DNA of 64,000 nucleotides from an uncultured Aliarcobacter sp. (GCA_963664305.2 CAXXLV010000002.1:1-64000); one strand, 5' to 3'; shown: positions 17,423 through 36,153, numbered from the stretch's first letter. Numbers and translations: made by a program. The notes: generated by a model not told the origin, from the letters alone.

Positions 17423-17438
17423 AATAAAATATTATAAA

Positions 17439-18532: not shown

Positions 18533-18877
18533 ATGACAAAAAAAATTGATTTAAATATTGAAGAAAATATTGAAAAATGTCCCGTTGAAACAGCACTTGA
18601 TGTACTTGCGGGTAAATGGAAAATATTAATATTATGGTATTTAAGAGCGGAGAAAAAAAGATTTAGTGAATTACAAAAAATGCTTCCTAGAACTACACAA
18701 AAAATGTTAATTCAAAAATTAAGGGAGCTTGAAGAAGATGGAATTGTTCATCGGGAAGTTTATCCTGTTGTTCCTCCAAGAGTTGAATATTCATTAACTG
18801 AATATGGAGAAACTTTAAAACCTATATTAAAACAATTATATTTATGGGGTGAAATTCACAAGAATGAATATAAATAG
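18533..18877 (+). CDS. HxlR-family winged-helix regulator with an N-terminal Cys
   Basis: [15 protein letters not shown]...RFSELQK...LRELEEDG...PPRVEYSLT; divergent from the oxidoreductase gene. Confidence 0.93.
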
Positions 18878-18898
18878 AAACATTAATTTATATTTTTT

Positions 18899-18940
18899 AT
18901 GAGAATTATTTGTTTAAATCTAATAATTCTCATTTTTTTT
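18899..18940 (+). terminator. Intrinsic terminator after the HxlR gene
   Basis: atgagaattatt...aataattctcat followed by a T run. Confidence 0.65.
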
Positions 18941-19233
18941 CAAAAAATTTATTTTCTTTAATTTGATTTTTACTAACTTTTAAAAACTCCCAATTTTCAT
19001 ACTAATGTTAAGTTTTTATTGTGTAAATAAGTTTATCTTTTTTCTTAAAAATATATTTTTAGAAACTACCTTTCTTTTTTGTAAGTTCTTGTTTTTTGTT
19101 TTTTCATAAGTTAAACTTTTCTAAATCAAACTTTAAGGATTGATAATAGTAAAAAATATTATTTACAGTGTAAAAGCATAAATTATCCTTTTACACTAAT
19201 TTTTAATATAAGAAAGTTAATAGGAATTAAAAA

Positions 19234-20250
19234 ATGACAGAAAAAATATATGATATTATAATTATAGGTGGTGGACCAGGAGGAATTGGTACTGCAATTG
19301 AAGCATCAGCCCATAATATTGGGAAAATTTTACTTATTGAAAAAAGTGATAATCATTCAAATACAATTAGAAAATTTTATAAAGATAATAAAAGAGTTGA
19401 TAAAGATTATAAAGGTCAAGTAACTGAACTTCAAGGTAATGTTGAATTTTATGATGGTACTAAAGAAACTACATTAGATTATTTTAATGATTTATTAGAT
19501 AGTGAGAAAATTGATTCTTCATTTAATACTGAAATTGAAAAACTTGTAAAAATTGAAGATGGATTAATGGAAATTCATACTTCAAATGGAATTTTTAAAA
19601 CTAAAAATACTGTTATTGCTATTGGTAAAATGGGTAAACCAAATAAACCAATAGATTATAAAATTCCAGTATCAATTGGAAGACAAGTAAATTTTAATCT
19701 TGATTCATGTTCTTCAAATGAAAAGATACTTGTAGTAGGAGGAGGAAATTCTGCTGCAGAATACGCCTATGACTTAGCAGAGCAAAATAATAATGTTACA
19801 TTAGTTTATAGAAAAGCTGAGTTTTCAAGATTAAATAAATTAAATGAAAATTTATTATATAAATATTATGGTGAAGAAAAATTAAGACTTAGAATGAACT
19901 GTGATATAGAGAATCTAGAAAATGAAAATGGGAAGATAAAAGTTCAATTCAATGATGGATATTCAGTTTTATATGACAGAATAATTTATGCAATTGGAGG
20001 AACAACACCAGTTGATTTTTTAAAAAGTTGTGGTGTAGATATAGATGAGAGTGGGAAACCAATTTTTAATGAACATCATGAAACATCAAATGAAAATGTA
20101 TATGTAGCAGGGGATATAGCAATGATGTCTGGTGGATCTATTGCAATAGCGTTGAATCATGGATATCATATTGTAAATAATATTCAAAGAAAGAGTGGTA
20201 AAATTTTTTCTCATACTTATAAGTTTCAAGCAAATGAAATAGATGTTTAA
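19234..20250 (+). CDS. FAD/NAD(P)H oxidoreductase of the thioredoxin-reductase fold lacking CxxC (FqrB/YpdA-like)
   Basis: IIGGGPGG, TIRKFYKDNKRVD, VVGGGNSAAEYA and YVAGDI...GGSIAIALNHG motifs. Confidence 0.8.
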   Translation: MTEKIYDIIIIGGGPGGIGTAIEASAHNIGKILLIEKSDNHSNTIRKFYKDNKRVDKDYKGQVTELQGNVEFYDGTKETTLDYFNDLLDSEKIDSSFNTEIEKLVKIEDGLMEIHTSNGIFKTKNTVIAIGKMGKPNKPIDYKIPVSIGRQVNFNLDSCSSNEKILVVGGGNSAAEYAYDLAEQNNNVTLVYRKAEFSRLNKLNENLLYKYYGEEKLRLRMNCDIENLENENGKIKVQFNDGYSVLYDRIIYAIGGTTPVDFLKSCGVDIDESGKPIFNEHHETSNENVYVAGDIAMMSGGSIAIALNHGYHIVNNIQRKSGKIFSHTYKFQANEIDV

Positions 20251-20326: not shown

Positions 20327-20359
20327 TGCAAGTTTTATGACAGAATTGAATGTTACTAT
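20327..20359 (+). promoter_or_regulatory. Regulon motif copy 1 with -10 (usp-tctD-tctE)
   Basis: TGCAAG-TTTTA-TGACAG-aattgaaTGt-TACTAT. Confidence 0.8.
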
Positions 20360-20389: not shown

Positions 20390-21241
20390 ATGAATTATAA
20401 AAAAATGTTCTTCCCTATTGGTGGTGGAGAAGAGTTAGAAGAGAGAATTTATGGAGCCTTGTTAGTTGCAAAATATTTTAAAATAAATTTAGAAATTTTA
20501 AAATGTGGACCTAAATATAATCCTAATATGTATAGAAATTTATCTATACCAGAAGATCTTTTTAAAAAAATTGATGAAGTTGTAGATAAAAAATATAAAG
20601 ATGAATCTTTAGAGTTTAATGAACTTTTTGAGAAAAAAGTTAAAGAAATTGATATTAAAATATCTCCAATCCCACTTGATAGTGAAGCAAGTGTTTATTT
20701 AAAAGATAATAAAAAAGGACTTAGAAGTAATATTATTGAACAAGAATCAAAGTTTTGTGATTTAGTAATAGCAGCAGCTCCTCCTTTAGGAGTTACAACA
20801 TCTACATTTGAAACAGCTGTATTAAAAAGTGGGAAATCAGTACTAATGATTCCAAGAATTATGAAAATATTCTCTACAAAATCAGTAATTATTGGATGGA
20901 ATAACTCTCCTGAAGCTTCAAGAGCATTAACTACTTCAATTGGTATTTTAAAAGAAGCACAAAGAGTACATATTGTTTCGTCAGAAGAGTATGTTGGGGG
21001 AACTAATATCATAAATGATTTATTAGATTATTTGAAATGTCATAAAATAGATGCTACTTATGAAATCGTTAAAACAACAAAAATTCCAGGTCAAGCACTT
21101 TTAAATGCAGCATTAGATGGTAATTTTGATTTAATAGTTGCAGGTGCTTATGGACATAGAGGTTTAAAAGAGATGATGTTTGGTGGAGCGACTAGATATC
21201 TTTTAGAAAAATCGACATTACCTATTTTTATGTCTCACTAA
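20390..21241 (+). CDS. Universal stress protein (tandem USP domains)
   Basis: IGWNNSPEASRAL and DLIVAGAYGHRGLKEMMFGGATRYLL...PIFMSH. Confidence 0.92.
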   Translation: MNYKKMFFPIGGGEELEERIYGALLVAKYFKINLEILKCGPKYNPNMYRNLSIPEDLFKKIDEVVDKKYKDESLEFNELFEKKVKEIDIKISPIPLDSEASVYLKDNKKGLRSNIIEQESKFCDLVIAAAPPLGVTTSTFETAVLKSGKSVLMIPRIMKIFSTKSVIIGWNNSPEASRALTTSIGILKEAQRVHIVSSEEYVGGTNIINDLLDYLKCHKIDATYEIVKTTKIPGQALLNAALDGNFDLIVAGAYGHRGLKEMMFGGATRYLLEKSTLPIFMSH

Positions 21242-21260
21242 ATTGTGATATACTTTAGCC

Positions 21261-21917
21261 ATGAAAATATTATTAATTGAAGATAATGAAACCTTAGCAA
21301 ATGGTATCTCTAGAAAATTAAAAGAAATAGGTTACCTTGTTGATATTTTTCATGATGGAGAAAATGGACTTTATTCTCTTGAAACAGCAATTTATGATTT
21401 ATTGATTTTAGATTTAGGATTACCTAATATTGATGGAATTGATATTATTAAAAAATTAAGAACATCTCAAAAAAATTTACCGATTTTGGTTATTTCTGCA
21501 AGAGATAAACTTGACCAAAGAATCTTAGGTCTTGATACAGGAGCAGATGATTATTTGTGTAAGCCTTTTGAACTAGATGAAGTAATAGCAAGGGTTCATG
21601 CCCTTTTGAGAAGAAGCAAAAACCAAGTTTCAAATATTATTAATTATAATGATTTATCATTTAATACTCAAACACTTATATTAACTAAAAATTCAGAATT
21701 GATAGAATTAAGTAAAAGAGAATTAAAAATATTTGAATTCTTATTACAAAATCAAAATGCAATAGTAAGTAAAGATAATATTGTTGACCATATTACAACA
21801 ATTGATGATGAATTTAACCCAACAGCTGTTGAAACATATATTTCAAGATTAAGAAAAAAACTTGGGGATTCAATAAATATAAAAACTGTGAGGGGCCTTG
21901 GCTATATGATGAACTAA
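21261..21917 (+). CDS. tctD: OmpR-family response regulator, TctD-like
   Basis: LLIEDN, LDLGLP, GADDYLCKPF, AVETYISRLRKKL and TVRGLGY motifs; tct context supports the symbol. Confidence 0.8.
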   Translation: MKILLIEDNETLANGISRKLKEIGYLVDIFHDGENGLYSLETAIYDLLILDLGLPNIDGIDIIKKLRTSQKNLPILVISARDKLDQRILGLDTGADDYLCKPFELDEVIARVHALLRRSKNQVSNIINYNDLSFNTQTLILTKNSELIELSKRELKIFEFLLQNQNAIVSKDNIVDHITTIDDEFNPTAVETYISRLRKKLGDSINIKTVRGLGYMMN

Positions 21918-21918
21918 T

Positions 21919-23289
21919 ATGAAAGAGATACCATCAATTCGTACTCAATTAACAAAGTGGTTAATATTTCCATTAGGTTTATTTACTTTAATACTTTTTA
22001 TATATTTAAATAATTTTTTGAAAAATAGAGTTAATGATTTTTTTGATAATCGTTTATATGCTTCTGCAAAAAGTATAGAAGATTATATTGGGGTTGAAAA
22101 TGGGAAATTAATAATTGATTTCCCTAATTTTTCTGTTGATTTTTTATCCCTTACTCAAAAAGGTCTGGTCTATTATTCTGTTGTAACTGAAAGTGGAGAA
22201 GTTTTAGTTGGACAAAAAGATTTATTTGAAAAAAAAATTCTTTTAAAAGAAGATAAAAGATTTTATTATAAGACCTATGATAATGAAAAGTTAAGAGTAA
22301 TCTCTTATAAAGTTTTTTTTATAGATTCAAACAAAAAATATTCTGCATATATAACCATTGCTGAAAGTATGGATGAAAGAAAAGAAAATATAAAAGAAGT
22401 TATAAATACTGTTCTAATGATTATTTTAATTGTTTCTTTGTTTACCATTATAATTACACTAATTGCAGTAAATAAGGGATTAGAACCACTTCAATTACTC
22501 AAAAATAAAATAAAACAAAGAGATTCAAGAGATTTAACTCCATTGAAATTTAATGCTCCAAAAGAAATTGAAGATGTTGTTAATAGTATTAATATCTTGC
22601 TTGAAAGAAGTAGAGATAATATTGAATATATAGAACAATTTAATTCAGATGTTTCTCACCAATTAAGAACACCTTTAGCTGAAATGAAAATGGAGTTAGA
22701 CCATTTTTTTGATAAAAAAGATGAAAAGTTTATTATTTTAAACTCTCATATTAATAATATGTCACATATTACAGAACAACTATTATTGTACGCAAAAACA
22801 AATCCAAATACAATAAATTTAGCTAGATTAAAAAAAGCAAATTTAAATGAAATTTGTAAAAATTATAGTATTAAAACAGCTCCTAGAGTTTATAAAAGAG
22901 GTTTTGAATTTGCATTTGAAGATATAGATGAACAAATATTTATAGAAACAGATACAATTATTTTAGAAAGTATGCTTGATAATATTATTAATAATGCGTT
23001 ACATTATGCTGTAGATAAAGATGGTAACCCAATGGGAACAATAACTTTATCCCTAAAAAGACACAATAATACAATCTGGTTAAATGTTAAAGATGAAGGA
23101 TATGGTGTAGAAAAAGAAAACTTAAAAAATATTTTTCAAAGATATTATAGAGTTGATTCTTCAAAAACTGGTTCAGGTTTAGGACTTAGTATTGTAAAAC
23201 AAATTGCTACATTACACAATGCAGAAGTTATTGCTTCAAATAATAATGGTTTAGAAATATCTATAATATTTAAATATCCAATGAAATAG
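21919..23289 (+). CDS. tctE: Sensor histidine kinase, TctE-like
   Basis: Two TMs, FDNRLYASA N-terminal segment, SHQLRTPL H-box, NIINNALHY, GSGLGLSIV. Confidence 0.8.
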   Translation: MKEIPSIRTQLTKWLIFPLGLFTLILFIYLNNFLKNRVNDFFDNRLYASAKSIEDYIGVENGKLIIDFPNFSVDFLSLTQKGLVYYSVVTESGEVLVGQKDLFEKKILLKEDKRFYYKTYDNEKLRVISYKVFFIDSNKKYSAYITIAESMDERKENIKEVINTVLMIILIVSLFTIIITLIAVNKGLEPLQLLKNKIKQRDSRDLTPLKFNAPKEIEDVVNSINILLERSRDNIEYIEQFNSDVSHQLRTPLAEMKMELDHFFDKKDEKFIILNSHINNMSHITEQLLLYAKTNPNTINLARLKKANLNEICKNYSIKTAPRVYKRGFEFAFEDIDEQIFIETDTIILESMLDNIINNALHYAVDKDGNPMGTITLSLKRHNNTIWLNVKDEGYGVEKENLKNIFQRYYRVDSSKTGSGLGLSIVKQIATLHNAEVIASNNNGLEISIIFKYPMK

Positions 23290-23291
23290 TT

Positions 23292-24254
23292 TTATTTATC
23301 AAATAAATAGTTATAAGTTTCAAATAAATTATAGGTATTAAGAAGAACTTCTTTTGATTTTTTATCTCCTATCCAAGTATAACCTATATTTTTTTCTTTT
23401 AATATTTTTTGATTATTTCTTTGTGCTAAAACTTTTTCAAGAGCTTTTTCTAATATTAAATATCTTTGTGGGAAATCTTCTTTAAATTTTTTTGAAACAG
23501 CAAAACCTCTCATTGGACCACTGATAATTGGTAAAATAATATTTGTATCTTTAATAGCTTCATTAAGTGTAGGAGCATCCCATCTTCTTGATCTCTTATC
23601 TGAAATTACAGCTAAAGGTTTAATCTCATTTCTATATTTTTCACTTCCTTGAGCTGCAATTACTAAAAGATCAACTTTTGATTCAAAAAGTGCAGTTCTT
23701 GCTAATTCTCCTCCTGCAAAAAAATTAAATTCAACTTTTTCAAATGGAATATTAAACTTTTCAAGTAAAAGTTTTATCATTAAATGACCACTTGATTTAT
23801 AAATAACTGCAATTTTAATTTTTTTTGGACTATTTTGTATTTCAGATAATAGTTCTTTTATTGAATTGATTTTTGAATCTTTGTTTACAGATATTAAATC
23901 GTAATCAAACCATTGAATATTTATGAAATGAAAGTCATCAAGAGTATATTTTGATTGTCCACTTAATACTGTATTTGCAAGATATGGAGAAAAAGCTGAA
24001 GCAAAAATAGTATAACCGTCACTTTCTTGAGCTAATACATAATTTGCAGCATCTAATGAGGCATTTGCTTTTATATTTATTACATTTATAGAAGTATTTA
24101 ACTCTTTTTCCAATAAAGTAGCCATATTTCTAGCCATTCTATCACTACTTCCACCTTTTCCTAAACCTACAACTAATGTTATAGGTTTAGAAGGGTAATT
24201 TTGGGCAAATAAAATTGTATTTAATAAAAAAAGAATACTTAATAATATTTTCAT
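23292..24254 (-). CDS. TctC/Bug-family periplasmic binding protein (second, divergent copy)
   Basis: Signal peptide; YPSKPITLVVGLGKGGSSDRMAR, DGYTIF and DAPTLNE motifs. Confidence 0.88.
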   Translation of the reverse strand: MKILLSILFLLNTILFAQNYPSKPITLVVGLGKGGSSDRMARNMATLLEKELNTSINVINIKANASLDAANYVLAQESDGYTIFASAFSPYLANTVLSGQSKYTLDDFHFINIQWFDYDLISVNKDSKINSIKELLSEIQNSPKKIKIAVIYKSSGHLMIKLLLEKFNIPFEKVEFNFFAGGELARTALFESKVDLLVIAAQGSEKYRNEIKPLAVISDKRSRRWDAPTLNEAIKDTNIILPIISGPMRGFAVSKKFKEDFPQRYLILEKALEKVLAQRNNQKILKEKNIGYTWIGDKKSKEVLLNTYNLFETYNYLFDK

Positions 24255-24276
24255 TTAAAACTCCATTTTTATTATA

Positions 24277-24309
24277 ACCTTAATATATAAAGCTGTCATT
24301 AACCTTGCA
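24277..24309 (-). promoter_or_regulatory. Regulon motif copy 2 with -10 (second tctC)
   Basis: Minus strand TGCAAG-GTTAA-TGACAG-ctttatatat-TAAGGT. Confidence 0.7.
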
Positions 24310-24310
24310 T

Positions 24311-25066
24311 TTATTTAAGCATCAGTAAAATAGATTCAATTACTAATTTACCTCCAAGAAAAATAATTACTATTTTTATGATTTTTTTAAATAATTCATC
24401 ATTACTTTTATCTAACAGTTTTTTACCAAAAAGTGTTCCAAAATATGAAAAAACAATTAGTATTAAAATCAAATTTATCCAAGGAGTATAATCAAATCCT
24501 AAACCACCAAAAATAATAGCTTTTCCTAAGTTCTGAAAAGAAATACACCAAGCTAAAGTTCCTACAATTATATGACGATTTGTCAAAAATGAGCTTAAAA
24601 ATATTCCTAAAAGTGGTCCCATTACTCCAACAAACATTGTTAAAAAACCTGTAATTGCACCAAAAATTATTATTTTAATATTTGAAATATTATCTATTTT
24701 AAAATTAGGAATTAAAGTTAAAATAATAATACCAAGCCCTAAAAATAGTTTTAAAAAATATTCAGGAAGTACAATCAAAAATTGTGTAGCAAAAAAGTAT
24801 CCAAAAAGTGTACCAAACATAAAAAGAAAAAAGAATTTTTTATAAAAGGAATTTCTAAACATTATTGCACGCAATATTCCAGAGCCTGCTTGAATTATTG
24901 CATGAATAGATAAAAGAGCTGTTACTGGGATGACTAAACTCATCGCCCCAATAACAACTAATCCTCCTCCTGTTCCAACAGATGTAGAAATTGCTGCACC
25001 TAAGAAACAAAAAAGGATTAATAAAAACAAATCAAAAAGTGTAATTGAATTTGGAAGCAGTTCCAT
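24311..25066 (-). CDS. TauE/SafE (TSUP) family membrane transporter
   Basis: About 8 TMs with duplicated GTGGG / GVMGP motifs. Confidence 0.8.
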   Translation of the reverse strand: MELLPNSITLFDLFLLILFCFLGAAISTSVGTGGGLVVIGAMSLVIPVTALLSIHAIIQAGSGILRAIMFRNSFYKKFFFLFMFGTLFGYFFATQFLIVLPEYFLKLFLGLGIIILTLIPNFKIDNISNIKIIIFGAITGFLTMFVGVMGPLLGIFLSSFLTNRHIIVGTLAWCISFQNLGKAIIFGGLGFDYTPWINLILILIVFSYFGTLFGKKLLDKSNDELFKKIIKIVIIFLGGKLVIESILLMLK

Positions 25067-25068
25067 TT

Positions 25069-26136
25069 TTATACATAAACCTCACCTTCAAATAAAAGTC
25101 TAGCTGTTCTTGTTGTCATTCCTTCTACTTTACTTACATCAAGACTTGGAAAATTAACTCCTACTTGTGTTGTTCCTGATGGATTTTCAATTTTAACTAT
25201 ATGATTACCTAAAGTTAACTCTTGTGGATTAATTTGATTTAATATTGTTCCTTTTATAAAAGAACCAACTGCAATACAAAAACCTGCTGATACAGCAATT
25301 GCAGGATGTGCAGTTGTTGGTGTAAAATATCTAATGTTCATATCTCCATCAAATTTAGGCTTGCTAACTGCTGCAATTTTTGGAATAACATTTCCTTTAC
25401 AAGAACCAAGACCCATAGCTTGCGAAGCTTCTTCTCTAATTTGTTCTAGTTTTTTAAATAACTCTTTATTTGAATCTAATACCTCTGGTGTTTCATAACC
25501 TGTAATTCCTACATCTTGGGCTCTTACAAAAACAACAGGCATACTAATATCTAAACAAGTTGCTTCAACTCCACAAAAAGTATCAATTACATTTTTTGTT
25601 GGTAAATATGAACCTGTTTTTCCACCAGTTATATTTTTAAAAAATAGTTTAATTGGAGCAGCCGTTCCAGGAACTCCTGCAATTTCCATATCACCTTTAT
25701 AAGTTATACATCTATTAGGTGTTTTAATTGTTTGAGCAATTGTAGCACCTGTATTTACATCATAGATATTTACGATAGTTTCATCTTCTTCAATATTTAC
25801 TAATCCTCGCTCAAGAGCAAAAACTCCAACAGCTGTTAATATATTTCCACAAGTTGGCTTATCATCAACAATTGGTTGGTCAACCATAACTTGGATAAAT
25901 TTATAATCAATATCTATCCCATCTCTTTTTGATGGAGAAATAATTGCAACTTTCGTTGTAACAGAAGTTGCTCCTCCAATACCATCAATTTGTCTTATAT
26001 CAGGAGAACCCATAATCTTTAATAAAAGATTATGTCTCTCTTGTGTATTACTTGGTAAATCTTTATCTAAAAAATAAGCACCTTTTGAAGTTCCCGCTCT
26101 ATACATCATACATTTTATTCTATTTAAATCATTCAT
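25069..26136 (-). CDS. PrpF-family isomerase (4-oxalomesaconate tautomerase / aconitate isomerase-like)
   Basis: MYRAGTSKGAYF, MGSPDIRQIDGIGGA..TTKVAII, CGNIL, GVPGTAAPI and RTARLLFEGEV motifs. Confidence 0.9.
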   Translation of the reverse strand: MNDLNRIKCMMYRAGTSKGAYFLDKDLPSNTQERHNLLLKIMGSPDIRQIDGIGGATSVTTKVAIISPSKRDGIDIDYKFIQVMVDQPIVDDKPTCGNILTAVGVFALERGLVNIEEDETIVNIYDVNTGATIAQTIKTPNRCITYKGDMEIAGVPGTAAPIKLFFKNITGGKTGSYLPTKNVIDTFCGVEATCLDISMPVVFVRAQDVGITGYETPEVLDSNKELFKKLEQIREEASQAMGLGSCKGNVIPKIAAVSKPKFDGDMNIRYFTPTTAHPAIAVSAGFCIAVGSFIKGTILNQINPQELTLGNHIVKIENPSGTTQVGVNFPSLDVSKVEGMTTRTARLLFEGEVYV

Positions 26137-26140
26137 TTTA

Positions 26141-28165
26141 TTAACCTTTTAATATTAAATCACCAATTAGTCCAGTAGGAAGTGTCAACGATAATAAGTG
26201 ACACATAAACCATAAAGAACCAATTGAAAGAGCTGCTATAATCGATGTTTTTAACCATGACGATTGTATTTTAATTCTAATAGTAGCTATAATCATAATT
26301 GTTACAGAAGGAATAAATCCTAAAATCCACGTACCAACTAAAAAAATAGGAAGAATTAAAAAGCTTTTCCATGTCTCTTTCCAATATGTTGTTACTTCAC
26401 CATTTTCAATAATACTCGCTCCTAAAACTTCTTTTTGTTTAGTTTTTGATACTAATTGAAATGCTAATAAAATTGAAAAAACAATCATTATTGAACTAAT
26501 AACTATTGGGAAAATTCCCCCTAAAAAATCATGTGGAATAGAATCAAATAAAGCATAAGCTGCAAATATAATTAATCCAATAACCATAAATAATTCACCA
26601 GAAAAGAATGAATAAGTGTAATTAGTTTTGTTTTCTTCTAAATCTTCTTCAGATAATTCACCATTTTTTATTCTATTTTCTTTTTCTAATTTCTCTTTTT
26701 TATCACTTCTTTTTTTGAAGTAAGCACTTAATCCAATTGAAGCAATCATAAATAGTATGATTCCAATTACACCTGGTCTATATAACATATCCCATGAATA
26801 GAATTGAACAGCTTGATAATAATAAGTTTCAATAGTACCAGCTAAAATAAATCCAATAAGAAGAGCTGGTCTTGGCCAATCAAAGTGTTTAAATAAAATA
26901 CCTAATGCACCAATCACTATTAATAAAATTAAATCTTCTAAACTTCTAGTTGCTTGAAGTGCAGCAAAAAAGATAATCATTAACATAATAGGAGCAACAT
27001 AACCATAAGGAATTTTTGTAATTTTTGCAATATGATTTGCTAATCCTAAACATACTAATGTACCAACAACGTTTGCAATAGCAAGTGACCAAATAATCGT
27101 ATAAGATATTCCTAAATTTGAGCCAACCATTGCAGGTCCTGGTTCAATTCCTAAGATAGTTAATCCACCTAAGAATACAGCCATAGAACCACTTCCAGGA
27201 ACTCCTAAAAGTAATGTAGGAATTAATCCTCCACCTTCTTTTGCATTATTCGCACATTCAGGTGCAATTACACCTCTAATATCACCTTTACCAAATTGAC
27301 TTTTATCTTTTGATGTTTGAACAACATGTCCGTATGCAATCCAGTCAACAACACTTCCACCAAGTCCTGGAATTGCTCCAATCATTGCTCCCATTGGTGC
27401 ACAACGAGCAATAATCCATTTTGCTGCCCAAGTATCTTTTACACCTTGAAACCAAGAACCACTTAATTTTCCATTAGTTGATATTTGTTGATTTTTAACT
27501 AATAAATCAATAATTTCAGGAATAGCATAAACACCAAGTCCTAAAATTACTAATTTAATTCCATCAAATAAATAGTAACTATCAAAAGTCATTCTCCATT
27601 CACCAGTTGCAGGTGCACTTCCAATACAACCTAATAGTAAACCTACAGAAGCTGCGATAAAACCTTTATATAAGCTTTTACCACTTAAAACTCCCACCAT
27701 ACTAAGACCAAAAATTCCTAATATAAATAGTTCTGCAGTACCTAATTTTAGGATGATGCCTCTTGCAAAAACAATAAAAAATGTCAAAATAATAGCACCT
27801 AATAATCCACCAATTAAAGATGAAGTAAAAGCAGCTGCTAAAGCCCTTGAAGCTTGCCCTTTTTGAGCTAATGGATAACCATCTAAAACTGTTGCTTGAG
27901 AAGCAGATGAACCTGGAATCCCCATAAGTACTGATGTAAAAGTATCAGATGTTGGAATAACAGCTACCATCCCAATTAACATAGCAAGAGCAGATGTTAC
28001 ATCCATTCCATAAATAAAAGGTATCATTATAGAAAAACCTACAATTCCACCAAGTCCGGGAAGAATCCCAACAATAATTCCTAAAATCACCCCACCAAAT
28101 AAATAAAGCATATGTTGAACTGACATAAGTTCATTAAAGGCACTAAATAACGCATCTATAGCCAT
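26141..28165 (-). CDS. tctA: Tripartite tricarboxylate transporter permease TctA with a fused C-terminal TctB-like domain
   Basis: GILPGLGG, GIPGS..S.ATVLDGYPLAQKG and GVIAPECANNA motifs; 674 aa, with a charged linker then about 4 extra TMs ending LPTG. Confidence 0.88.
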   Translation of the reverse strand: MAIDALFSAFNELMSVQHMLYLFGGVILGIIVGILPGLGGIVGFSIMIPFIYGMDVTSALAMLIGMVAVIPTSDTFTSVLMGIPGSSASQATVLDGYPLAQKGQASRALAAAFTSSLIGGLLGAIILTFFIVFARGIILKLGTAELFILGIFGLSMVGVLSGKSLYKGFIAASVGLLLGCIGSAPATGEWRMTFDSYYLFDGIKLVILGLGVYAIPEIIDLLVKNQQISTNGKLSGSWFQGVKDTWAAKWIIARCAPMGAMIGAIPGLGGSVVDWIAYGHVVQTSKDKSQFGKGDIRGVIAPECANNAKEGGGLIPTLLLGVPGSGSMAVFLGGLTILGIEPGPAMVGSNLGISYTIIWSLAIANVVGTLVCLGLANHIAKITKIPYGYVAPIMLMIIFFAALQATRSLEDLILLIVIGALGILFKHFDWPRPALLIGFILAGTIETYYYQAVQFYSWDMLYRPGVIGIILFMIASIGLSAYFKKRSDKKEKLEKENRIKNGELSEEDLEENKTNYTYSFFSGELFMVIGLIIFAAYALFDSIPHDFLGGIFPIVISSIMIVFSILLAFQLVSKTKQKEVLGASIIENGEVTTYWKETWKSFLILPIFLVGTWILGFIPSVTIMIIATIRIKIQSSWLKTSIIAALSIGSLWFMCHLLSLTLPTGLIGDLILKG

Positions 28166-28208
28166 AAAATCTCCTTTAAAGTAAATTCTTACTTTGAATT
28201 CTGAATGA

Positions 28209-28241
28209 AGATTAACATTTTTAGCTGTCTTGAAACTTGCA
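28209..28241 (-). promoter_or_regulatory. Regulon motif copy 3 with -10 (tctAB-prpF-tauE)
   Basis: Minus strand TGCAAG-TTTCA-AGACAG-ctaaaaaTGt-TAATCT. Confidence 0.8.
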
Positions 28242-28291
28242 ATTATTGTTTTTATATTTGATGAATTAAGGGGAAATTTTTGTATAAAAAG

Positions 28292-28325
28292 AAAAAGTCA
28301 TTTTCTAAAAGAAAATGACTTTTTT
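28292..28325 (-). terminator. Intrinsic terminator after tctC
   Basis: aaaaagtcattttct-aaa-agaaaatgacttttt. Confidence 0.75.
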
Positions 28326-28347
28326 AAGTATATATTTTTGATTAGAA

Positions 28348-29427
28348 TTAGAATTTAACTTTATAATTTTCCATTAGCCAATTAGTAATCCATTCTTTAT
28401 CTTTTTTATCAACAGTTGTTGCAGTATCTTTTAATTTATTTGCATTTTCTCCAATAGTTTGTTCATATATTCCTAAATGTAAATCACTTTTTTCTTTAAA
28501 GTCAGGAGCTGTTACAACTTTTTTAAGTGCATTTGTATAAGTTTCAAGTACATCAGGAGATACATCTTTTGGTAATACTAACATTTTTTGAGAAGGGAAA
28601 CTTGCTGTAAATAATGCTTTCCATGCTTTAAAAGATGTATCATTAAGAGATTTTCCACTTGTTTTTTCATATACTTCAGCAAATGTTGGTAATTCAGGGA
28701 AACTAGGATCTCTTTGAATATTTCCTTTATCATCTAATATACCCCATGAAAATAAAGGTACAGATTTTTCTTCAGTCATTGCAGGTAAAACTTCTTTTAA
28801 ATATGCAGAACTAGTTTGAAAATCAATATTTGTTTCACCTCTTAAAAAGGCTAATCTACCTTCTTTTCTTCCTTTCATTCCAAATACTGGTTGAACATTT
28901 AAGTCAAGTATTTTAAAAGCTAATAAAGGAATTAAATCCATTGATGTAGGACCTTGACTTCCAAATTTCAATTCAGCATTTTTTAGCTTATCAAAATCAT
29001 TTATATCTTTTATACCTAAAGAAGATGATACATAAACTACTCCACCTGTAGGAGAAGATAGTACAGCATACCAATCTTTAAAATCATATTTAATTCTATC
29101 ATCACCTAAAACAAAAGGTATTTGTGTTGATGCTGATGATGCAAAAATTGTTAAACCATCTTTCGTAGCTTTTTCTGCAAAATAGTTTGCACCTTTAGTT
29201 GATCCTCCACCTGGCATATTTTTTATAATAATATTAGGTTTTCCTGGAAGTGCTTGAGATAATAATGGTGCATAAAATCTTCCCCATTGGTCAGTTCCAC
29301 CACCAGCATTGTATGGCATAATCCATTCAATTGTTTTACCTTCAAAATTTACTTCTTTTGCATTTAGTGTATTTACTAACATTCCTAATGCCAAACCTGA
29401 AGTCACAAGTGTTTTAATCATTTTCAT
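28348..29427 (-). CDS. tctC: TctC/Bug-family periplasmic binding protein
   Basis: Signal peptide; PYNAGGGTD, NMPGGGS..GAN, RLAFLRGE and PELPTF motifs; lies upstream of tctA. Confidence 0.88.
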   Translation of the reverse strand: MKMIKTLVTSGLALGMLVNTLNAKEVNFEGKTIEWIMPYNAGGGTDQWGRFYAPLLSQALPGKPNIIIKNMPGGGSTKGANYFAEKATKDGLTIFASSASTQIPFVLGDDRIKYDFKDWYAVLSSPTGGVVYVSSSLGIKDINDFDKLKNAELKFGSQGPTSMDLIPLLAFKILDLNVQPVFGMKGRKEGRLAFLRGETNIDFQTSSAYLKEVLPAMTEEKSVPLFSWGILDDKGNIQRDPSFPELPTFAEVYEKTSGKSLNDTSFKAWKALFTASFPSQKMLVLPKDVSPDVLETYTNALKKVVTAPDFKEKSDLHLGIYEQTIGENANKLKDTATTVDKKDKEWITNWLMENYKVKF

Positions 29428-29474
29428 CTTAAATCCTTTTTTTAAGTTTTATTATCTAAGAAAGATATGAGGGA

Positions 29475-29507
29475 AGATTAACATTGAATTCTTTCATGAA
29501 ACTTGCA
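29475..29507 (-). promoter_or_regulatory. Regulon motif copy 4 with -10 (tctC)
   Basis: Minus strand TGCAAG-TTTCA-TGAAAG-aattcaaTGt-TAATCT. Confidence 0.8.
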
Positions 29508-29550
29508 TAATATTTAATTTTTTTATTATCAAGAGTTATCAAAAAATCTT

Positions 29551-29583
29551 TGCAAGTTTCTTGACAGTAATAGAAGTTATATT
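29551..29583 (+). promoter_or_regulatory. Regulon motif copy 5 with -10 (MCP)
   Basis: TGCAAG-TTTCT-TGACAG-taatagaagt-TATATT. Confidence 0.8.
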
Positions 29584-29608
29584 AATAGAAAATGAAAAAA
29601 GGATTTTT

Positions 29609-31915
29609 ATGTTTAAATATAAAGATATAAATATTAAAATGAAAATGATTTTAATTTCAATCATTTCTTTATTAATTGTTGTAGTTATTATAGGTGGTAT
29701 TTCTGTTGAAGAAGCAAAAAAAGCACTAATGAAAAATAATTATGATAGTTTAACTTTCTCAAGAGATAATAAAACTCAGCAAATTGAAAATCTTTTTAAT
29801 CGAATGGTTAATGATATAGAAGTTTTATCAAGTAGTAAAACAGTCGATCAATTAGTTTATGATTTAACTAGTTTATATTCTCAAATGGATATAGATACAA
29901 AAGATAAATTTCCAATAAATGATTCAATGGTTAAAGATACTATTTCTTCAAGTGAGAATTTTTTTCAAAGTTATATTAAAAAGTATAATTATAATGATAT
30001 CTATTTAATTGATGTACAATCAGGGCAAATATATTATACAGCTAAAAAAAATGCTGACTTTGGAGAAAATTTAAAATCTGGAAAATTGAATAATTCTTTA
30101 CTAGCTGATGTATGGAAAAAAACCATTGAAAACAATGCAACTACTTTTGTAGATATGAAACCTTATGAAATTAATGACAATAAACCTGTAATGTTTTTAG
30201 GAACACCTGTATATGAAAATGGATATAAAGAGGATGGAATAAAAGCTGTATTAGTATTTCAAATTGGAAATAATGATATAAATAAAATAATGAATTTTAG
30301 GAAAGGTTATGGACAAACACAAGAAGATTATTTGGTTGGTAATGATTATTTAATGAGAAGTGATAGTTTTTTAAGTCCAAAAACTCATTCAATAAATTCA
30401 TCTTTTTCATCTCCTCAAAAAAATAGTATAAAAACAAATGCAACGATAAATGCATTTAAAAATCAAACAAATACAGAAATTATAAAAGGGTATGATAATT
30501 ATAATGTTTTATGTGCATACAGTCCTATCAATATTTCAAAAGATATAACTTGGGCAATTGTTTCTGAAATTAGTGAAGATGAAGTTTTAATTACACCACA
30601 TTCTTTGAGAACAGAGATTATTATAGTTTCATTTATTGTTTTATTGTCTTTGTCACTTTTTGTATATTTCATAATAAATAAAAATATAATATCACCTCTT
30701 AATAACTTTCAAGAAGGATTATTAAATTTCTTTAAATATCTAAATAGAGAAAAGGATGATGTCTCTCTTTTAAACATAGTTTCAAAAGATGAAATAGGAG
30801 TTATGTCAAAAATCATAAATGAAAATATTTTAAAAATAAAAGATAACATTGAGGAAGAAAAAGAGCTTATTAAATCAACTATTTTTGTATTAAAAGAGTT
30901 TGAACAAGGTGATTTATCACAAAGAGTTACTAAAAAATCTTCAAACTCTTCATTGAATGAATTAACAAATTTATTAAACCAAATGGGAATAAATTTAGAA
31001 ATGAATATCAATAATATACTTAATATATTAGAACAATATTCAAATTATAATTATTTGAATAAAATCAACACGAATAACTCTAAAAAACATCTTCTTCAAT
31101 TATCTGAAGGAATAAATTATTTAGGTGATTCAATTACTCAAATGTTAATAGAAAATAAAAAAAATGGTTTGGTTTTAGATTCTAATAGTGATATATTAAT
31201 TAAAAATGTAAATCTTCTAAATAATAATCTAAATAATTCTGCTGCTTCACTTGAAGAAACAGCTGCTGCTGTTGAGCAAATAACAAGTAATATAACATCA
31301 AATACACTAAGTGTTAAAAATATGTTTGAATATACAGAAATATTAACTAATTCAGTAAATGAAGGAAAAAATTTATCGTTAAAGACTGATTTGGCAATTG
31401 ATATAATGAATGAGCAAATTCTTACAATAAATAATAGTATTGACATGATTGAACAAATTTCATTTCAAACAAATATATTATCTCTTAATGCAGCTGTTGA
31501 AGCAGCAACTGCTGGTGAAGCTGGACGTGGTTTTGCAGTTGTTGCAGCTGAAGTGCGAAATTTAGCTTCAAGAAGTGCTGAAACAACAAGAAAAATTAAA
31601 GAATTAGTATCAATTGCTATATTAAAAGCAAATGATGGAAAAGAGATAGCTAAAGAGATGATTGCTGGTTATAACACTGTTGATGAAAATATTTCAAAAA
31701 CGATTGAATTGATATCACAAGTTAATTTTTCTAGTAATGAACAACAAAAAGGAATAGAGCAAATAAATGATGCAATAAATTTATTAGATCAAAAGACTCA
31801 AGAAAATGCTGCAATATCCAATAAAACTTATGATGTTGCAATACAAACGGATAAATTAGCAAAGTTAATTGTTCAAAAAACAAATGAAAAAGAATTTAAT
31901 GGAAAGGATATTTAA
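29609..31915 (+). CDS. Methyl-accepting chemotaxis protein with a large Cache-type periplasmic domain
   Basis: Two TMs; [27 protein letters not shown]. Start moved from the track's TTG at 29561 to ATG 29609 (AAGGA RBS; the TTG lies inside the promoter motif). Confidence 0.92.
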
Positions 31916-31935
31916 AAGTCAAAATTTGTATTAAA

Positions 31936-31968
31936 TGCAAGTTTCATGACAGTGTTCAATGTTAGGAT
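31936..31968 (+). promoter_or_regulatory. Regulon motif copy 6 with -10 (porin)
   Basis: TGCAAG-TTTCA-TGACAG-tgttcaaTGt-TAGGAT. Confidence 0.8.
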
Positions 31969-31997
31969 AACCTTGTTAAATTAACAAGGAGAGAAAA

Positions 31998-33215
31998 ATG
32001 AACAAATTAATTAAAAAGAGTTTAATTGCTACTTTAGCAGTAACATCAATTGCAACATCATCATTTGCAGCTGATACATTAGCTGATGCTTTTAGTAATG
32101 GAAAAATAAAAGGTGATATTAAATCATACTATTTTGATGAAAATTATGATTCAGCAAAAACTTCTGATAATAGTATTTGGGTAAATGGTGGAAGTTTAAA
32201 TTATGTTACAGATAGTTTTAATGGTGTAAAACTAGGTGCAACATTACAAACTTCACATGTTGGAACTATTGATGATGACACAGCTAAACAAGCAAAATTT
32301 ATGGATGCATCAGGTTCAGTTTTATCTGAGGCTTATTTAGAATATAAATATGCAAATACAAGCTTTAAAGGTGGTAGACAATTTATCTCTTTACCTTTAA
32401 TCAATGGTTCAGGTTCAAGACTTATAAAAGAATCATTTGAAGGTTACTTTTTAGCTAATAATGATATTCCAAATACTTTAGTATCTTTAGGAAAAGTTAC
32501 AAAATATCAAACAAGAACAGATAGTGTAACAAGTGGAACAAATGGTGCATCTTTTTCAAATACAGAAGTAAATGATGGTGATGTTGGTGGATTTAATAAA
32601 ATAGGTACAGATGGTGCTGTTTCATTATATATTAAAAATGATTCTATAAATAATTTAACTATTCAAGGTCATTATGTAGATTTTATTGATGAGGTTAAAG
32701 ATTTATATGTAGATGCTACTTATAAATTTGGTGGAGATTTTAAACCATTTGTAGCAGCACAATATTATGATTCAAATTATGATAAAGCTACAGTTAAAGA
32801 TAGCTCATTATATGGTTATAAAATTGGGGCTACATTCTTTACAGTAGATTTTCATGCTGCTTATACATCAGCAGATGATAAAGGAAATGTAAATAGAGGT
32901 ATAGGTGAAGCTGCAACTGCATCATTTACTTCTTCAACAACAACAACTGGAAACTATACAGCGGGTACTGATTCATGGCAAATTGGTGCTTCTAAGAAAT
33001 TTGGAAATTTAACTACAAAAATTTCTTATACTGATAGTGATTCTTTATTAGTAAAAAATGATTTAAAACAAACATATTTAGGTGCACAATATAAATTCTC
33101 TGGGGCACTTAAAAATTTAGCAATGTCAGCTGATTATACTATCTATGAAAATGGAAAAGGTAATGAATCTAAAGATAAAGATGAGTTAAGATTAAAAGCA
33201 ATTTATTCTTTTTAA
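31998..33215 (+). CDS. OprD-family outer membrane porin
   Basis: Signal peptide; ADTLADAFSNGK, LSEAYL, GGRQFI..PLI motifs; C-terminal ELRLKAIYSF beta-signal. Confidence 0.85.
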   Translation: MNKLIKKSLIATLAVTSIATSSFAADTLADAFSNGKIKGDIKSYYFDENYDSAKTSDNSIWVNGGSLNYVTDSFNGVKLGATLQTSHVGTIDDDTAKQAKFMDASGSVLSEAYLEYKYANTSFKGGRQFISLPLINGSGSRLIKESFEGYFLANNDIPNTLVSLGKVTKYQTRTDSVTSGTNGASFSNTEVNDGDVGGFNKIGTDGAVSLYIKNDSINNLTIQGHYVDFIDEVKDLYVDATYKFGGDFKPFVAAQYYDSNYDKATVKDSSLYGYKIGATFFTVDFHAAYTSADDKGNVNRGIGEAATASFTSSTTTTGNYTAGTDSWQIGASKKFGNLTTKISYTDSDSLLVKNDLKQTYLGAQYKFSGALKNLAMSADYTIYENGKGNESKDKDELRLKAIYSF

Positions 33216-33306
33216 TAAAATAAATAAAAAGTTTGAAGAAATTCAAGCTTTTTATATTTGTGACTAAAATTTCGAAATCAAAAAAAAGCGAACAAAAGGA
33301 GAGATA

Positions 33307-33813
33307 TTAATATCTCTTCTTTAAATTACTACTATTTAATTCTTCAGAACAAACAATTATCCCATCTTCATCAGCATATAAAAAGTCGCCACTATTAAAA
33401 GTAACACCTCCAAATTTAAGTTCAATGTTTCTTTCTCCTTTATTTTTTTCAAAATTTCTTAAAGGACAAGTTCCTAATGCAATAAGACCAATTTTAAATT
33501 TATTAGTTTCTTTAATATCTCTTACATATCCATTTATAATAATTGCTTTATAGTTATTGTTTTCCGCAAATAATGATAGTTTATCTCCTACAATACCATA
33601 AAATTCTCTATCAACATCAACAACTACGATTTTCTCAGTTCCATCTTCATCTTTCAGCATAGAAAGTAAGTCCCAATTACTTTTGTTTAATTTGATAGTT
33701 GTTATTTGTCCGAAAAAACCAACTAAACCACCATAATTTCTGAATTCTGATGACAATACTTGTATGTTTTTATCTTGATTTTCATCACATAAATCTGCAG
33801 TGCTAAAATACAT
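33307..33813 (-). CDS. RraA-family protein (putative HMG aldolase / oxaloacetate decarboxylase)
   Basis: STADLCDE, NYGG...F.GQITTI, VGD, INGYVRD and GDFLYADEDGII motifs. Confidence 0.88.
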   Translation of the reverse strand: MYFSTADLCDENQDKNIQVLSSEFRNYGGLVGFFGQITTIKLNKSNWDLLSMLKDEDGTEKIVVVDVDREFYGIVGDKLSLFAENNNYKAIIINGYVRDIKETNKFKIGLIALGTCPLRNFEKNKGERNIELKFGGVTFNSGDFLYADEDGIIVCSEELNSSNLKKRY

Positions 33814-33835: not shown

Positions 33836-33868
33836 ATAGTATAATATTAATCTTTCAGTAAGCTTGCA
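33836..33868 (-). promoter_or_regulatory. Regulon motif copy 7 with -10 (rraA-like gene)
   Basis: Minus strand TGCAAG-CTTAC-TGAAAG-attaatatta-TACTAT. Confidence 0.75.
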
Positions 33869-34384: not shown

Positions 34385-34782
34385 TGGTGGAGATGTGCGG
34401 GATCGAACCGCAGTCTTAAAACAGATCATAGAAGCGTCTACATGCTTAGCAAAGTTGAAAGATTTCACTTCATGACAGCTCAACTTCCAAAAGCAATCAC
34501 AAAGCTAAGATTTAAAATTTCTCTTTAAAGCCCAATCACAACCTCAAAGATAATCTATCTAGGGTGAACCAGCGATAATCTACATAGATAGAATCTGTAG
34601 TGCTAGCCTCCGAAGACTCAAGCCGTTAGGCGAGTCAATAAGTTGTTAAACTTACGCAGCTTTTGCGTAAGCTGGAGCGTAATTTGTATTGTTTGCGTCT
34701 AAAAAAAATGAACCGCGTAACGGCATGTTCAGGCCGACATGCAACTAATACTCACTGCTCTAATCGATACCAAGTCATCCCC
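34385..34782 (-). ncRNA. ssrA: tmRNA
   Basis: 5' GGGGATGACTTGGTATCGA; 3' GACTGCGGTTCGATCCCGCACATCTCCACCA; tag frame 34696-34652 reads ANNTNYAPAYAKAA*. Confidence 0.96.
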
Positions 34783-34934
34783 ATAATTTAAAAACGAAGT
34801 TTACATAACAAATTATTAAAAGCATGTTAATTGTAATCAAATTGTTATCAAATACCAAATGAGTTTTTGTTTCAATGGTTCTTATACTTTAAAACTGTAT
34901 AATGGTTACATAAAAATATATCGGAGTGAATAAA

Positions 34935-36128
34935 ATGAGCAAAAAAGGTATTTTAATTATTGGGGCAGGTGGTGTAAGTAGAGTAGCCACTGTTAAATGT
35001 GCAATGAATATTGACACATTTGAACATATTACATTAGCTTCTAGAACAGTTTCTAAATGTGAAGCAATTGCTGCTGATATTTTAAAAAATCAAGGTGTAA
35101 AAATTGATGTAGCTAGTGTTAATGCTGATAGTGTTGATGAATTAGTAAAATTAATTGAAAAAGTAAATCCTAAATTAGTATTAAATGTAGCATTACCATA
35201 CCAAGATTTAACAATAATGGACGCTTGTACAAAATGTAAAGTTGATTATGTAGATACTGCAAATTATGAACATCCAGATGAAGCAAAATTTGAATATAAA
35301 CTTCAATGGGAAAGAGATGGACAATTTAAAGAAGCTGGAATTATGGGATTATTAGGTTCAGGTTTTGACCCAGGTGTTACAGGAGTATTTTGTGCATATG
35401 CTCAACAAAATTTATTTGATGAGATTCACTATATTGATATTATGGATTGTAATGCAGGTGACCATGGTTATAAATTTGCAACAAACTTTAATCCAGAAAT
35501 TAACTTAAGAGAAGTATCTGCAAATGGTAGATATTGGGAAAATGGTCAATGGATTGAAACAACTCCTTTAGAAATTAGAGTTGACCATGACTATCCTGAA
35601 GTTGGTGTAAAACCATCTTATTTACTATATCATGAAGAGTTAGAGTCTTTATCAAAAAATATTAAAGGTTTAAAAAGAATTAGATTCTTTATGACTTTTG
35701 GTGATGCTTATATTCAACATATGAATTGTTTACAAAATGTTGGAATGTTAGGTATTGAGCCAGTTGAACATAAAGGTATGATGATTACTCCAATTGAATT
35801 TTTAACTACATTATTACCAGATCCAGCAAGCCTTGGACCAAGAACTGTTGGTAAAACAAATATTGGATGTATCATTGAAGGTATTAAAGATGGAAAACCA
35901 AGAAAAGTTTATATCTATAACGTTTGTGACCACCAAGAGTGTTATAAAGAAACAGGAGCACAAGCTGTTTCATATACTACAGGAGTTCCTGCAATGATTG
36001 GTTCTAAATTACTTTACAAAGGTATTTGGAAAAATACAGGAGTATTTAACATTGAAGAGTTTGATGCAAAACCATTTATGGATGAGTTAATGACTCAAGG
36101 TCTTCCTTGGAAAATTTTAGAGTTATAA
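34935..36128 (+). CDS. Carboxy(nor)spermidine dehydrogenase (saccharopine dehydrogenase family)
   Basis: IIGAGGV, NVALPYQDLTIMDAC, GSGFDPG, TNFNPEINLRE and QAVSYTTGVPA motifs; adjacent to nspC; ATG 34935 follows GGAG. Confidence 0.9.
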   Translation: MSKKGILIIGAGGVSRVATVKCAMNIDTFEHITLASRTVSKCEAIAADILKNQGVKIDVASVNADSVDELVKLIEKVNPKLVLNVALPYQDLTIMDACTKCKVDYVDTANYEHPDEAKFEYKLQWERDGQFKEAGIMGLLGSGFDPGVTGVFCAYAQQNLFDEIHYIDIMDCNAGDHGYKFATNFNPEINLREVSANGRYWENGQWIETTPLEIRVDHDYPEVGVKPSYLLYHEELESLSKNIKGLKRIRFFMTFGDAYIQHMNCLQNVGMLGIEPVEHKGMMITPIEFLTTLLPDPASLGPRTVGKTNIGCIIEGIKDGKPRKVYIYNVCDHQECYKETGAQAVSYTTGVPAMIGSKLLYKGIWKNTGVFNIEEFDAKPFMDELMTQGLPWKILEL

Positions 36129-36153
36129 TAAATCTTGAATAGAGGAGTTTATT

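Follow-up and report, generated by a model that had tools for sequence, protein, structure and literature searches.

A TctDE-Like Two-Component Regulon of an Uncultured Aliarcobacter, Probably for Scavenging an Aconitate-Type Tricarboxylate

Introduction

Which acid is served by a bacterial locus that places a tricarboxylate transporter, an isomerase, a porin and a chemoreceptor under one regulator? The question is raised by positions 20390–33813 of the stretch of DNA analyzed here (the window: the first 64 kb of contig C2), which comes from the 2.78-Mb genome, ~ 27% G+C, of an uncultured Aliarcobacter sp. Pfam and NCBIfam calls identify eleven intact genes in this locus, encoding a universal-stress-protein-family protein (USP), a response regulator, a sensor histidine kinase, two TctC-type binding proteins (TctC1 and TctC2), a fused TctA-TctB component of a tripartite tricarboxylate transporter (TTT), a PrpF-superfamily isomerase, a TauE/SafE permease, a methyl-accepting chemotaxis protein (MCP), an OprD-family porin and a short RraA-family protein. 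An earlier sequence-only reading of this DNA had listed the same parts and taken them for one co-regulated module that senses, swims towards, imports, isomerizes and cleaves an acid. The gene set is confirmed in full, and the results below support a single co-regulated module up to the isomerization step.

We consider the locus to be a TctDE-like two-component regulon through which the cell scavenges a C6 tricarboxylate of the aconitate type, most likely trans-aconitate, and assign this reading, which is built on sequence comparison, a probability of roughly 60%. The acid would cross the outer membrane through the OprD-family porin and be bound in the periplasm by TctC1, which would dock on the 2CSK_N domain of the kinase; the phosphorylated OmpR-family regulator would then bind a direct-repeat box and activate seven promoters. 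TctC2 would hand the acid to the fused TctAB permease, and the cytoplasmic isomerase would shift its double bond to give cis-aconitate, which the aconitases of the genome could feed into the tricarboxylic acid (TCA) cycle. The RraA-type enzyme may decarboxylate oxaloacetate to pyruvate, which would let the TCA intermediate be fully oxidized, and the co-regulated chemoreceptor would steer the cell towards the acid. Trans-aconitate is the simplest candidate substrate, because a single allylic isomerization yields a central metabolite and the genome lacks TcuA but has aconitase-family genes.

Both trans-aconitate and tricarballylate are inhibitors of aconitase and occur abundantly as acids of plant and rumen origin. 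To our knowledge, few systems for their uptake or catabolism have been described. The regulon is compact and fully delimited: its operator is defined, and it comprises seven promoters, a pair of binding proteins and a single kinase, chemoreceptor and enzyme. It thereby makes directly testable the specificity of TTT binding proteins, the signaling from binding protein to kinase and the function of a PrpF-superfamily clade.

Results

The eleven genes are arranged in seven transcription units. USP (20390–21241), the response regulator (21261–21917) and the kinase (21919–23289), all on the plus strand, are assigned to one operon because they are separated by gaps of only 19 bp and 1 bp. The fused TctAB (26141–28165), the isomerase (25069–26136) and TauE (24311–25066), all on the minus strand, likewise form an operon on account of gaps of 2–4 bp. 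TctC1 (23292–24254, minus strand) has its own promoter and is convergent with the regulator operon. The MCP gene (29609–31915), divergent from TctC2 (28348–29427, minus strand), is followed by the porin (31998–33215), both on the plus strand, and RraA (33307–33813, minus strand) converges on the porin.

All seven promoters carry a 17-nt box, TGCAAG-N5-TGACAG, at about − 39 to − 23, one per transcription unit and oriented towards the gene, as the sequence-only reading had claimed in proposing a common promoter motif. The match is exact upstream of the USP operon (20327–20343, +), TctC1 (24293–24309, −), the MCP (29551–29567, +) and the porin (31936–31952, +); it has one mismatch upstream of the TctAB-isomerase-TauE operon (28225–28241, −), TctC2 (29491–29507, −) and RraA (33852–33868, −), the last being exact in genome G273. 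For the MCP, ATG 29609 is the most likely start, because the box overlaps TTG 29561. With at most one mismatch, ten copies occur in the genome on both strands, seven within the 13.5-kb locus and three inside long open reading frames (ORFs), and the box is found at no promoter elsewhere in the 2.78 Mb. Its half-sites form a direct repeat with starts 11 bp apart. Half-sites at this distance from the start of transcription are the arrangement expected of an OmpR/PhoB-type activator that replaces the − 35 element. The half-motif AAGATTAACATT alone is not enriched, and a generic scan for sigma-70 promoters gave no information (94 sites, 100.5 expected).

For comparison, we fetched 20 loci with isomerase relatives at 58–97% identity, 5 from genome contigs, 2 from a phylum sample and 13 from metagenomes. 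After dropping L025 (the contig of L001), L033 (1.2 kb, gene only), L037 (cut off and near-identical to L035) and L029 (no upstream flank), 17 informative loci were left, the window included. The window and 14 related loci hold 47 instances of the box, 45 of them distinct, with the consensus TGCAAGTTTnATGACAG-nnTTnAATG-TTAnTnT; in the − 10 hexamer, T, A and T are invariant in 45 of 45, and a TG stands at the extended − 10 place. All seven boxes are conserved in L001 and L002, and the one upstream of the USP operon also in L026, L020, L005, L027, L030, L031 and L034. Box and regulator co-vary: the box is present in loci with an orthologous response regulator and kinase and missing from L035 and L036, whose two-component system is a different one (27% and 41% identity). 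As a separate observation, ORFs of 150–156 aa with only a Trans_reg_C domain lie at the cluster edges in L027 (701–1171) and L028 (69–521), and one such ORF of L028 is preceded by a box with one mismatch.

The most constant part of these loci is the transporter together with the isomerase. Fused TctAB adjoins the isomerase gene in 16 of the 17 loci, and in the remaining one (G165) a tripartite ATP-independent periplasmic (TRAP) transporter takes its place. In the window, the TctA subunit (PF01970, 410.2 bits) is the sole TctA match of the genome, and the TctB region, at 28.9 bits against a PF07331 cut-off of 29.1, forms the C-terminus of the 674-aa protein; the fusion is kept in nearly all related loci. 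TctC2 always adjoins TctAB. It scores 25.9 bits on PF03401, below the cut-off of 27, and matches TTT binding proteins of the PDB at 1.3e-6, while TctC1 scores 29.7 bits and matches them at 2.8e-17. The two are ~ 30% identical to each other over ~ 110 residues, and both are very divergent from characterized TctC proteins. A terminator-like hairpin follows TctC2 (28292–28324, −; 15-pair stem and T run).

A general uptake regulon for citrate or isocitrate of the TctCBA type, as in Salmonella and Bordetella, with the isomerase as an accessory passenger, could be expected from the transporter class, citrate being the commonest substrate of characterized TTT systems (PMC5812351). It would also agree with TctD as the best NCBIfam match of the regulator and with citrate as the ligand sensed by BctC-BctE. 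The isomerase, however, accompanies the transporter in all 17 loci and shares its operon, often with TcuAB adjacent, and citrate needs no isomerase. Together with the divergence of both TctC proteins, this makes citrate an unlikely substrate.

The synteny comparison suggested by the sequence-only reading gave a hint at the substrate, as orthologous clusters carry TcuAB and thereby favor two of its candidates, trans-aconitate and tricarballylate. TcuA and/or TcuB are present in nine of the 17 loci (L003, L005, L020, L021, L026, L027, L030, L031 and L034) and absent from eight (the window, L001, L002, L004, L028, L032, L035 and L036). Both score well above the cut-offs of the tricarballylate equivalog models (TcuA 637–668 bits against 369, TcuB 350–409 bits against 246.6), and TcuA is known to oxidize tricarballylate to cis-aconitate (PMC5630845, PMC2606687). 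The most telling of the loci is L026, whose isomerase is 92% identical to that of the window: the same eleven genes stand in the same order, and TcuA-TcuB lies between isomerase and TauE, where the window has a 2-bp gap. In G165, the orthologous regulator pair and box drive the TRAP transporter, the isomerase and TcuAB. The fuller clusters would therefore take tricarballylate as well. Judged from these gene contents, transporter and isomerase are the constant core and TcuAB is an optional add-on. The L003 cluster (6792–12494), from a Spirochaetota metagenome-assembled genome (MAG), has TctC2, TctAB and TcuA each split into two or three ORFs, reflecting either pseudogenes or long-read frameshift errors.

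The comparison allows for a further explanation, in which the isomerase acts after TcuA (tricarballylate to trans-aconitate to cis-aconitate) and the TcuAB-less cluster of the window is a decaying remnant of little function. The gene order in L026 would fit this explanation, as would the position of tcuA directly 3′ of the isomerase gene in five loci (L003, L005, L021, L026 and L031). However, all eleven window genes are intact and all seven boxes are kept in L001 and L002. TcuAB-bearing and TcuAB-less forms are interleaved in the isomerase tree, the latter recurring in separate branches (L028, L032, L004, L035 and L036). In G273, L027 and L034, moreover, TcuAB is under its own LysR regulator and lacks the box. 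These features suggest that TcuAB is a separable add-on, and we regard decay to a remnant as quite improbable. No direction of TcuAB gain or loss is claimed, because the tree is midpoint-rooted and its outgroup branches are long.

The isomerase itself (PF04303, 326.4 bits against a cut-off of 27, residues 6–355) was compared with the characterized members of its superfamily. Identity with PrpF is ruled out by its score on TIGR02334, 184.2 bits against 440.55. The real PrpF (626 bits) is encoded 1.6 Mb away in the methylcitrate operon prpB-prpC-acnD-prpF (L039; C2:1651899–1657937), along with AcnD (1529.6 bits). On NF033377, the equivalog model of 4-oxalomesaconate (OMA) tautomerases (GalD/LigU), the window isomerase reaches 417.8 bits against a cut-off of 440, and its window-type orthologues 394.6–416.2 bits. 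Its best solved relative is E. coli YbhH (1e-88, 43% identity), with LigU next (3e-84). The 17 window-type isomerases form one clade (99/99 support) and are separate from YbhH, which has a long branch to itself, as well as from two true GalD proteins and the PrpF of the genome. The catalytic-type residues Lys62 and Cys96 are invariant in the clade and align with those of LigU and YbhH. No signal peptide is seen in sequence or alignment, so that the imported species would itself be the substrate of the isomerase. Acinetobacter baylyi has a periplasmic isomerase, PacI, that lies outside the PrpF family.

The high score on NF033377 brings up OMA, or a related ring-fission product, as the imported acid, with a GalD/LigU-type isomerase and RraA as terminal aldolase; the sequence-only reading had named an aromatic ring-fission product among its candidates. 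NF033377 is indeed the best model for the isomerase. The gal cluster of P. putida also contains an OprD-type porin. RraA homologues, moreover, mostly keep the metal-binding motifs of the aldolases (PMC5065237). The score nevertheless stays under the cut-off, and true OMA tautomerases of the same phylum, L022 of G243 (503.5 bits) and L023 of G075 (486.4 bits), are only 41% identical to the window isomerase. Their clusters are of the gallate/protocatechuate 4,5-cleavage type and comprise the tautomerase, a LigK aldolase, a LigI-like hydrolase, an extradiol dioxygenase and a TRAP transporter. Neither Pfam nor NCBIfam detects an OMA hydratase, a ring-cleavage dioxygenase or AcnD in the window locus, in line with the sequence-only reading, and its conclusion that the locus represents neither the gallate nor the methylcitrate pathway is supported. 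By tblastn, the partner proteins of L022 (LigI-like, putative hydratase, dioxygenase) have no homologue in the genome, except for an unlinked LigK-like fragment at C2:672196. RraA scores 26.7 bits against 304.5 on the LigK model, and orthologous clusters carry TcuAB rather than lig or gal genes. The sub-cut-off score, the separate clade and the absent gal/lig partners speak against a GalD/LigU assignment, and a ring-fission product is the least probable of the substrates considered.

Alternatively, the imported acid might be a different unsaturated or branched one (methylaconitate, itaconate or methylitaconate, or a tricarballylate homologue), which the isomerase would make usable for housekeeping enzymes. 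Isomerases of methylaconitate and of methylitaconate are also found in the PrpF superfamily, and the methylcitrate operon of this genome could accept 2-methyl-cis-aconitate. Against such acids stands the lack of a CoA-transferase, hydratase or lyase in any related locus, and the TcuA and TcuB found there score well above their tricarballylate cut-offs, so that we rate these acids about as unlikely as citrate. For the preferred aconitate-type substrate, precedent exists within the superfamily, as TarA and TbrA are proven aconitate isomerases acting from trans to cis (PMC11495376). From the context of TcuAB and transporter, we propose the same activity (EC 5.3.3.7) for the window isomerase.

The sensing branch of the predicted regulon can be described at the level of domains. 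The response regulator (Response_reg and Trans_reg_C domains), the presumed box binder, has TctD as its best NCBIfam match (NF012023, 192.1 bits against a cut-off of 337), a resemblance at family level only. The kinase, of the TctE/BctE type, combines HisKA and HATPase_c with a 2CSK_N domain (PF08521, 80.9 bits), its periplasmic part spanning about residues 36–160. USP (PF00582, 31 bits) has an orthologue upstream of the regulator and kinase genes in most related loci. TctC1 always accompanies the kinase: in G165, which is 100% complete and has no TctA in the whole genome, TctC1, kinase and regulator are retained.

Structure prediction offers a closer look at a possible contact between TctC1 and the kinase. 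The modeled complex of mature TctC1 with the periplasmic domain of the kinase scores 0.79 (runs 0.79, 0.84 and 0.76), compared with 0.00 for the best of three controls. This level was attained in 116 of 157 solved complexes, compared with 2 of 215 mismatched pairs, counts that hold only roughly here as our own alignments were used. Contacts agree to at least 84% and partner pLDDT (predicted local distance difference test) values are at least 83, supporting binding in the model; no solved structure is related to the kinase domain. The modeled interface comprises residues 113–118 and 277–296 of TctC1 and residues 65–86 and 95–100 of the kinase. TctC1 is thus probably a sensor-only binding protein predicted to dock on the kinase in the manner of BctC on BctE, a kinase that also has a 2CSK_N domain and is stimulated by BctC in Bordetella (PMC8050422, PMC5812351).

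The MCP (MCPsignal, 99 bits) has a periplasmic sensor of ~ 400 aa and is placed in the regulon on account of its box at 29551 and its conserved position in five other loci. An orthologue stands beside TctC2 in six of the 17 loci (the window, L001, L002, L026, L028 and L032), with 58–59% identity in L028 and L032. The sensor is likely dCache-like: among the homologues listed for its 430-residue region (42–50% identity), 21 of 120 have dCache_1 (PF02743), and its nearest Atlas feature clusters are MCP-like_PDC_1/dCache_1 (0.98–0.99). A PDB sequence search with the region returned nothing meaningful.

The porin (PF03573, 41.3 bits) has orthologues in seven loci, counting the window (L001, L002, L020, L026, L027 and L034), and RraA in five, counting the window (L001, L002, L020 and L026, beside the porin in these four). 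An OprD-family porin, OpdH, is needed for cis-aconitate in P. aeruginosa, where mutants fail on this acid (PMC12338516). RraA meets the RraA models (NF006875, 147.9 bits against 136; TIGR01935, 129.5 bits against 123.8) and fails that of the LigK/GalC aldolases for 4-hydroxy-4-methyl-2-oxoglutarate and 4-carboxy-4-hydroxy-2-oxoadipate (HMG/CHA; TIGR02798). In the alignment, it retains Arg-Asp at the place of Arg-Gln in E. coli RraA. The cleavage step of the sequence-only reading is doubtful, since the RraA is of the short type and no hydratase is present that could supply an aldolase with its substrate. RraA homologues are regarded for the most part as class II pyruvate aldolases, and oxaloacetate decarboxylation is a further activity of the related HMG/CHA aldolase (PMC5065237). 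Because the window protein is of the short type and its relatives have this chemistry, we propose, with low confidence and by analogy, oxaloacetate decarboxylation as a cataplerotic exit; a class II pyruvate aldolase is the other candidate. An RraA paralogue at C2:275201 was considered as a functional clue and set aside, its neighborhood being unrelated.

TauE (TSUP family; PF01925, 66.9 bits) has orthologues in 11 related loci, L029 counted. In L021 (13027–14082) and L004 (8647–9669), an AbrB-duplication membrane protein (PF05145/TIGR03082) occupies its position, and a homologue of this protein (44% identical) is encoded elsewhere in the window genome, at C1:927659–928708.

Discussion

Several observations weigh against trans-aconitate scavenging and have to be set beside the evidence for it. 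The window isomerase misses the OMA-tautomerase cut-off by only 22 bits, and its nearest characterized relatives, with LigU at E = 3e-84, act on OMA. The link to tricarballylate rests on the orthologous loci, because TcuAB is absent from the window and TcuA, by tblastn, from its genome. Moreover, TcuAB alone requires no isomerase, as TcuA of Salmonella is reported to yield cis-aconitate directly. The genome-wide total of ten boxes is not above chance (mean 8.65, standard deviation 2.5, in 20 Markov-1 simulated genomes); the evidence for the box is for this reason its clustering, with ~ 0.04 boxes expected per 13.5 kb by arithmetic from the simulations against seven observed, and its fixed promoter geometry. 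Of the Cache MCP claimed by the sequence-only reading, the MCP stands, but Pfam finds no Cache domain in it even at E ≤ 1 and sees the signaling domain only, so that homologues and Atlas neighbors alone point to dCache. The genome has two further RraA paralogues, and the roles given to RraA, TauE and USP are conjecture.

Among known systems, the locus works like a merger of three: the TctDE-TctCBA(-OpdH) uptake system, the tar system for trans-aconitate and, in its fuller relatives, tcu. By membership tests on its sequences it falls outside GalD/LigU, PrpF, tcu and tar. TctDE/BctDE with TctCBA/BctCBA provide the closest parallel in regulation, as they likewise combine a TTT transporter, an OmpR-family regulator and a 2CSK_N kinase that receives a signal from a TctC-family protein (PMC8050422, PMC5812351), and the OprD-family porin parallels OpdH. 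In contrast to these systems, the locus has two divergent TctC paralogues with apparently split roles and a fused TctA-TctB, its regulon adds the isomerase, TauE, RraA, USP and the chemoreceptor, and its substrate is likely not citrate.

The tar system (tarR-tarAB) of Bacillus velezensis provides the parallel in chemistry: import of trans-aconitate, cytoplasmic isomerization to cis-aconitate by a PrpF-superfamily enzyme and induction by the substrate (PMC11495376). It employs the major facilitator superfamily (MFS) importer TarB, the one-component regulator TarR and a longer TarA (376 aa), and its description in that paper includes no porin, chemoreceptor or RraA. The locus differs from tar in having a TTT transporter and a two-component system in place of TarB and TarR. 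Table S6 of the same paper lists Arcobacteraceae and Sulfurospirillum with a tarA homologue at ~ 35–37% identity, where the entries do not state which PrpF paralogue was scored. With tcuRABC of Salmonella and of reptile-associated Campylobacter (PMC5630845), TcuA and TcuB are shared by the orthologous clusters, whereas the window and its genome have neither TcuAB nor the MFS transporter TcuC, and the regulator is a two-component system instead of a LysR protein (LysR occurring only with the TcuAB insert in G273, L027 and L034).

GalD and LigU are the closest characterized sequences and have the same Lys/Cys pair, from which the window isomerase differs by its score below the cut-off, its separate clade and the lack of gal/lig partners. 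In the ybhD-ybhH-ybhI-ybhJ region of E. coli, YbhH adjoins a putative tricarboxylate transporter and an aconitase-family hydratase; there, the transporter is of the divalent anion–sodium symporter (DASS) type rather than TTT, the regulator is of the LysR type and YbhH keeps to its own long branch. YbhH is described as a protein of unknown function (PMC9068703), and its closest relatives are included in the isomerase clade.

The route had been called possibly undescribed in the sequence-only reading, a claim that does not hold for its chemistry. Isomerization of trans-aconitate by PrpF-superfamily enzymes is in print (PMC11495376), and catabolism of tricarballylate and of cis- and trans-aconitate is reported to be linked in Acinetobacter, genetically so at the tcu locus of A. 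baylyi (PMC12338516, citing Baugh 2024). What is new here is the set of parts and its regulation. In the literature searched, no paper turned up that describes a TTT transporter, a PrpF-family isomerase and TcuAB together in one cluster; for Taylorella, the proximity of TcuAB to a TTT permease is noted in one paper. The related loci illustrate modular evolution, with a core of isomerase and regulator that stays constant while TcuAB, the MCP and the transporter type (TTT or TRAP) are exchanged.

We tentatively hypothesize that the isomerase clade, with YbhH outlying, might be a third lineage of aconitate isomerases and that ybhHIJ of E. coli might be an operon of the trans-aconitate type. As part of the same tentative proposal, TctC2 may serve the permease only and TctC1 the 2CSK_N kinase only, as a co-sensor that presents the ligand. 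This would be a division of labor not described for TTT systems, with TctC1 retained even where a TRAP transporter has taken the place of the TTT permease.

Genomic Context

Close copies of the locus were found in MAGs labeled Aliarcobacter. Of the 400 other Campylobacterota genomes sampled, 2 contain a window-type orthologue, and none of 9 same-genus genomes does; by this distribution the module is an accessory one. Contigs from RNA runs (two wastewater metatranscriptomes and two uncertain RNA runs) that are 90–99% alike span 25–30 of 30 locus bins. They were not used as evidence, because contigs show neither transcription nor induction and the libraries may contain DNA. A depth peak at 31376–31849 stems from the conserved MCP signaling domain of many organisms.

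Immediately to the right of RraA lies a transfer-messenger RNA (tmRNA) gene (34385–34782, minus strand; Rfam, 124.8 bits). In two same-genus genomes (G451 and G446), similarity to the window ends exactly at the tmRNA 3′ end, and the stretch from the contig start to 34384 is for this reason taken as a variable region beside ssrA. No att-like direct repeat of the tmRNA 3′ end was found within 11000–35200, and no integrase among the ORFs at 11452–20250.

The left end of the window (1–11406, plus strand) is occupied by a giant ORF that is open at the contig start and encodes at least 3801 aa, with DUF5801 repeats and a VWA domain near its end; by sequence, the product looks like an adhesin. Just left of the regulon, at 17439–20250, are an AcuI/YhdH-type reductase, an HxlR/RrpB-like redox regulator and a YpdA-like pyridine-nucleotide disulfide oxidoreductase, all without the box. 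Past the tmRNA, at 34926–37456 on the plus strand, carboxynorspermidine synthase and decarboxylase genes (nspC, 547.7 bits) belong to the conserved backbone.

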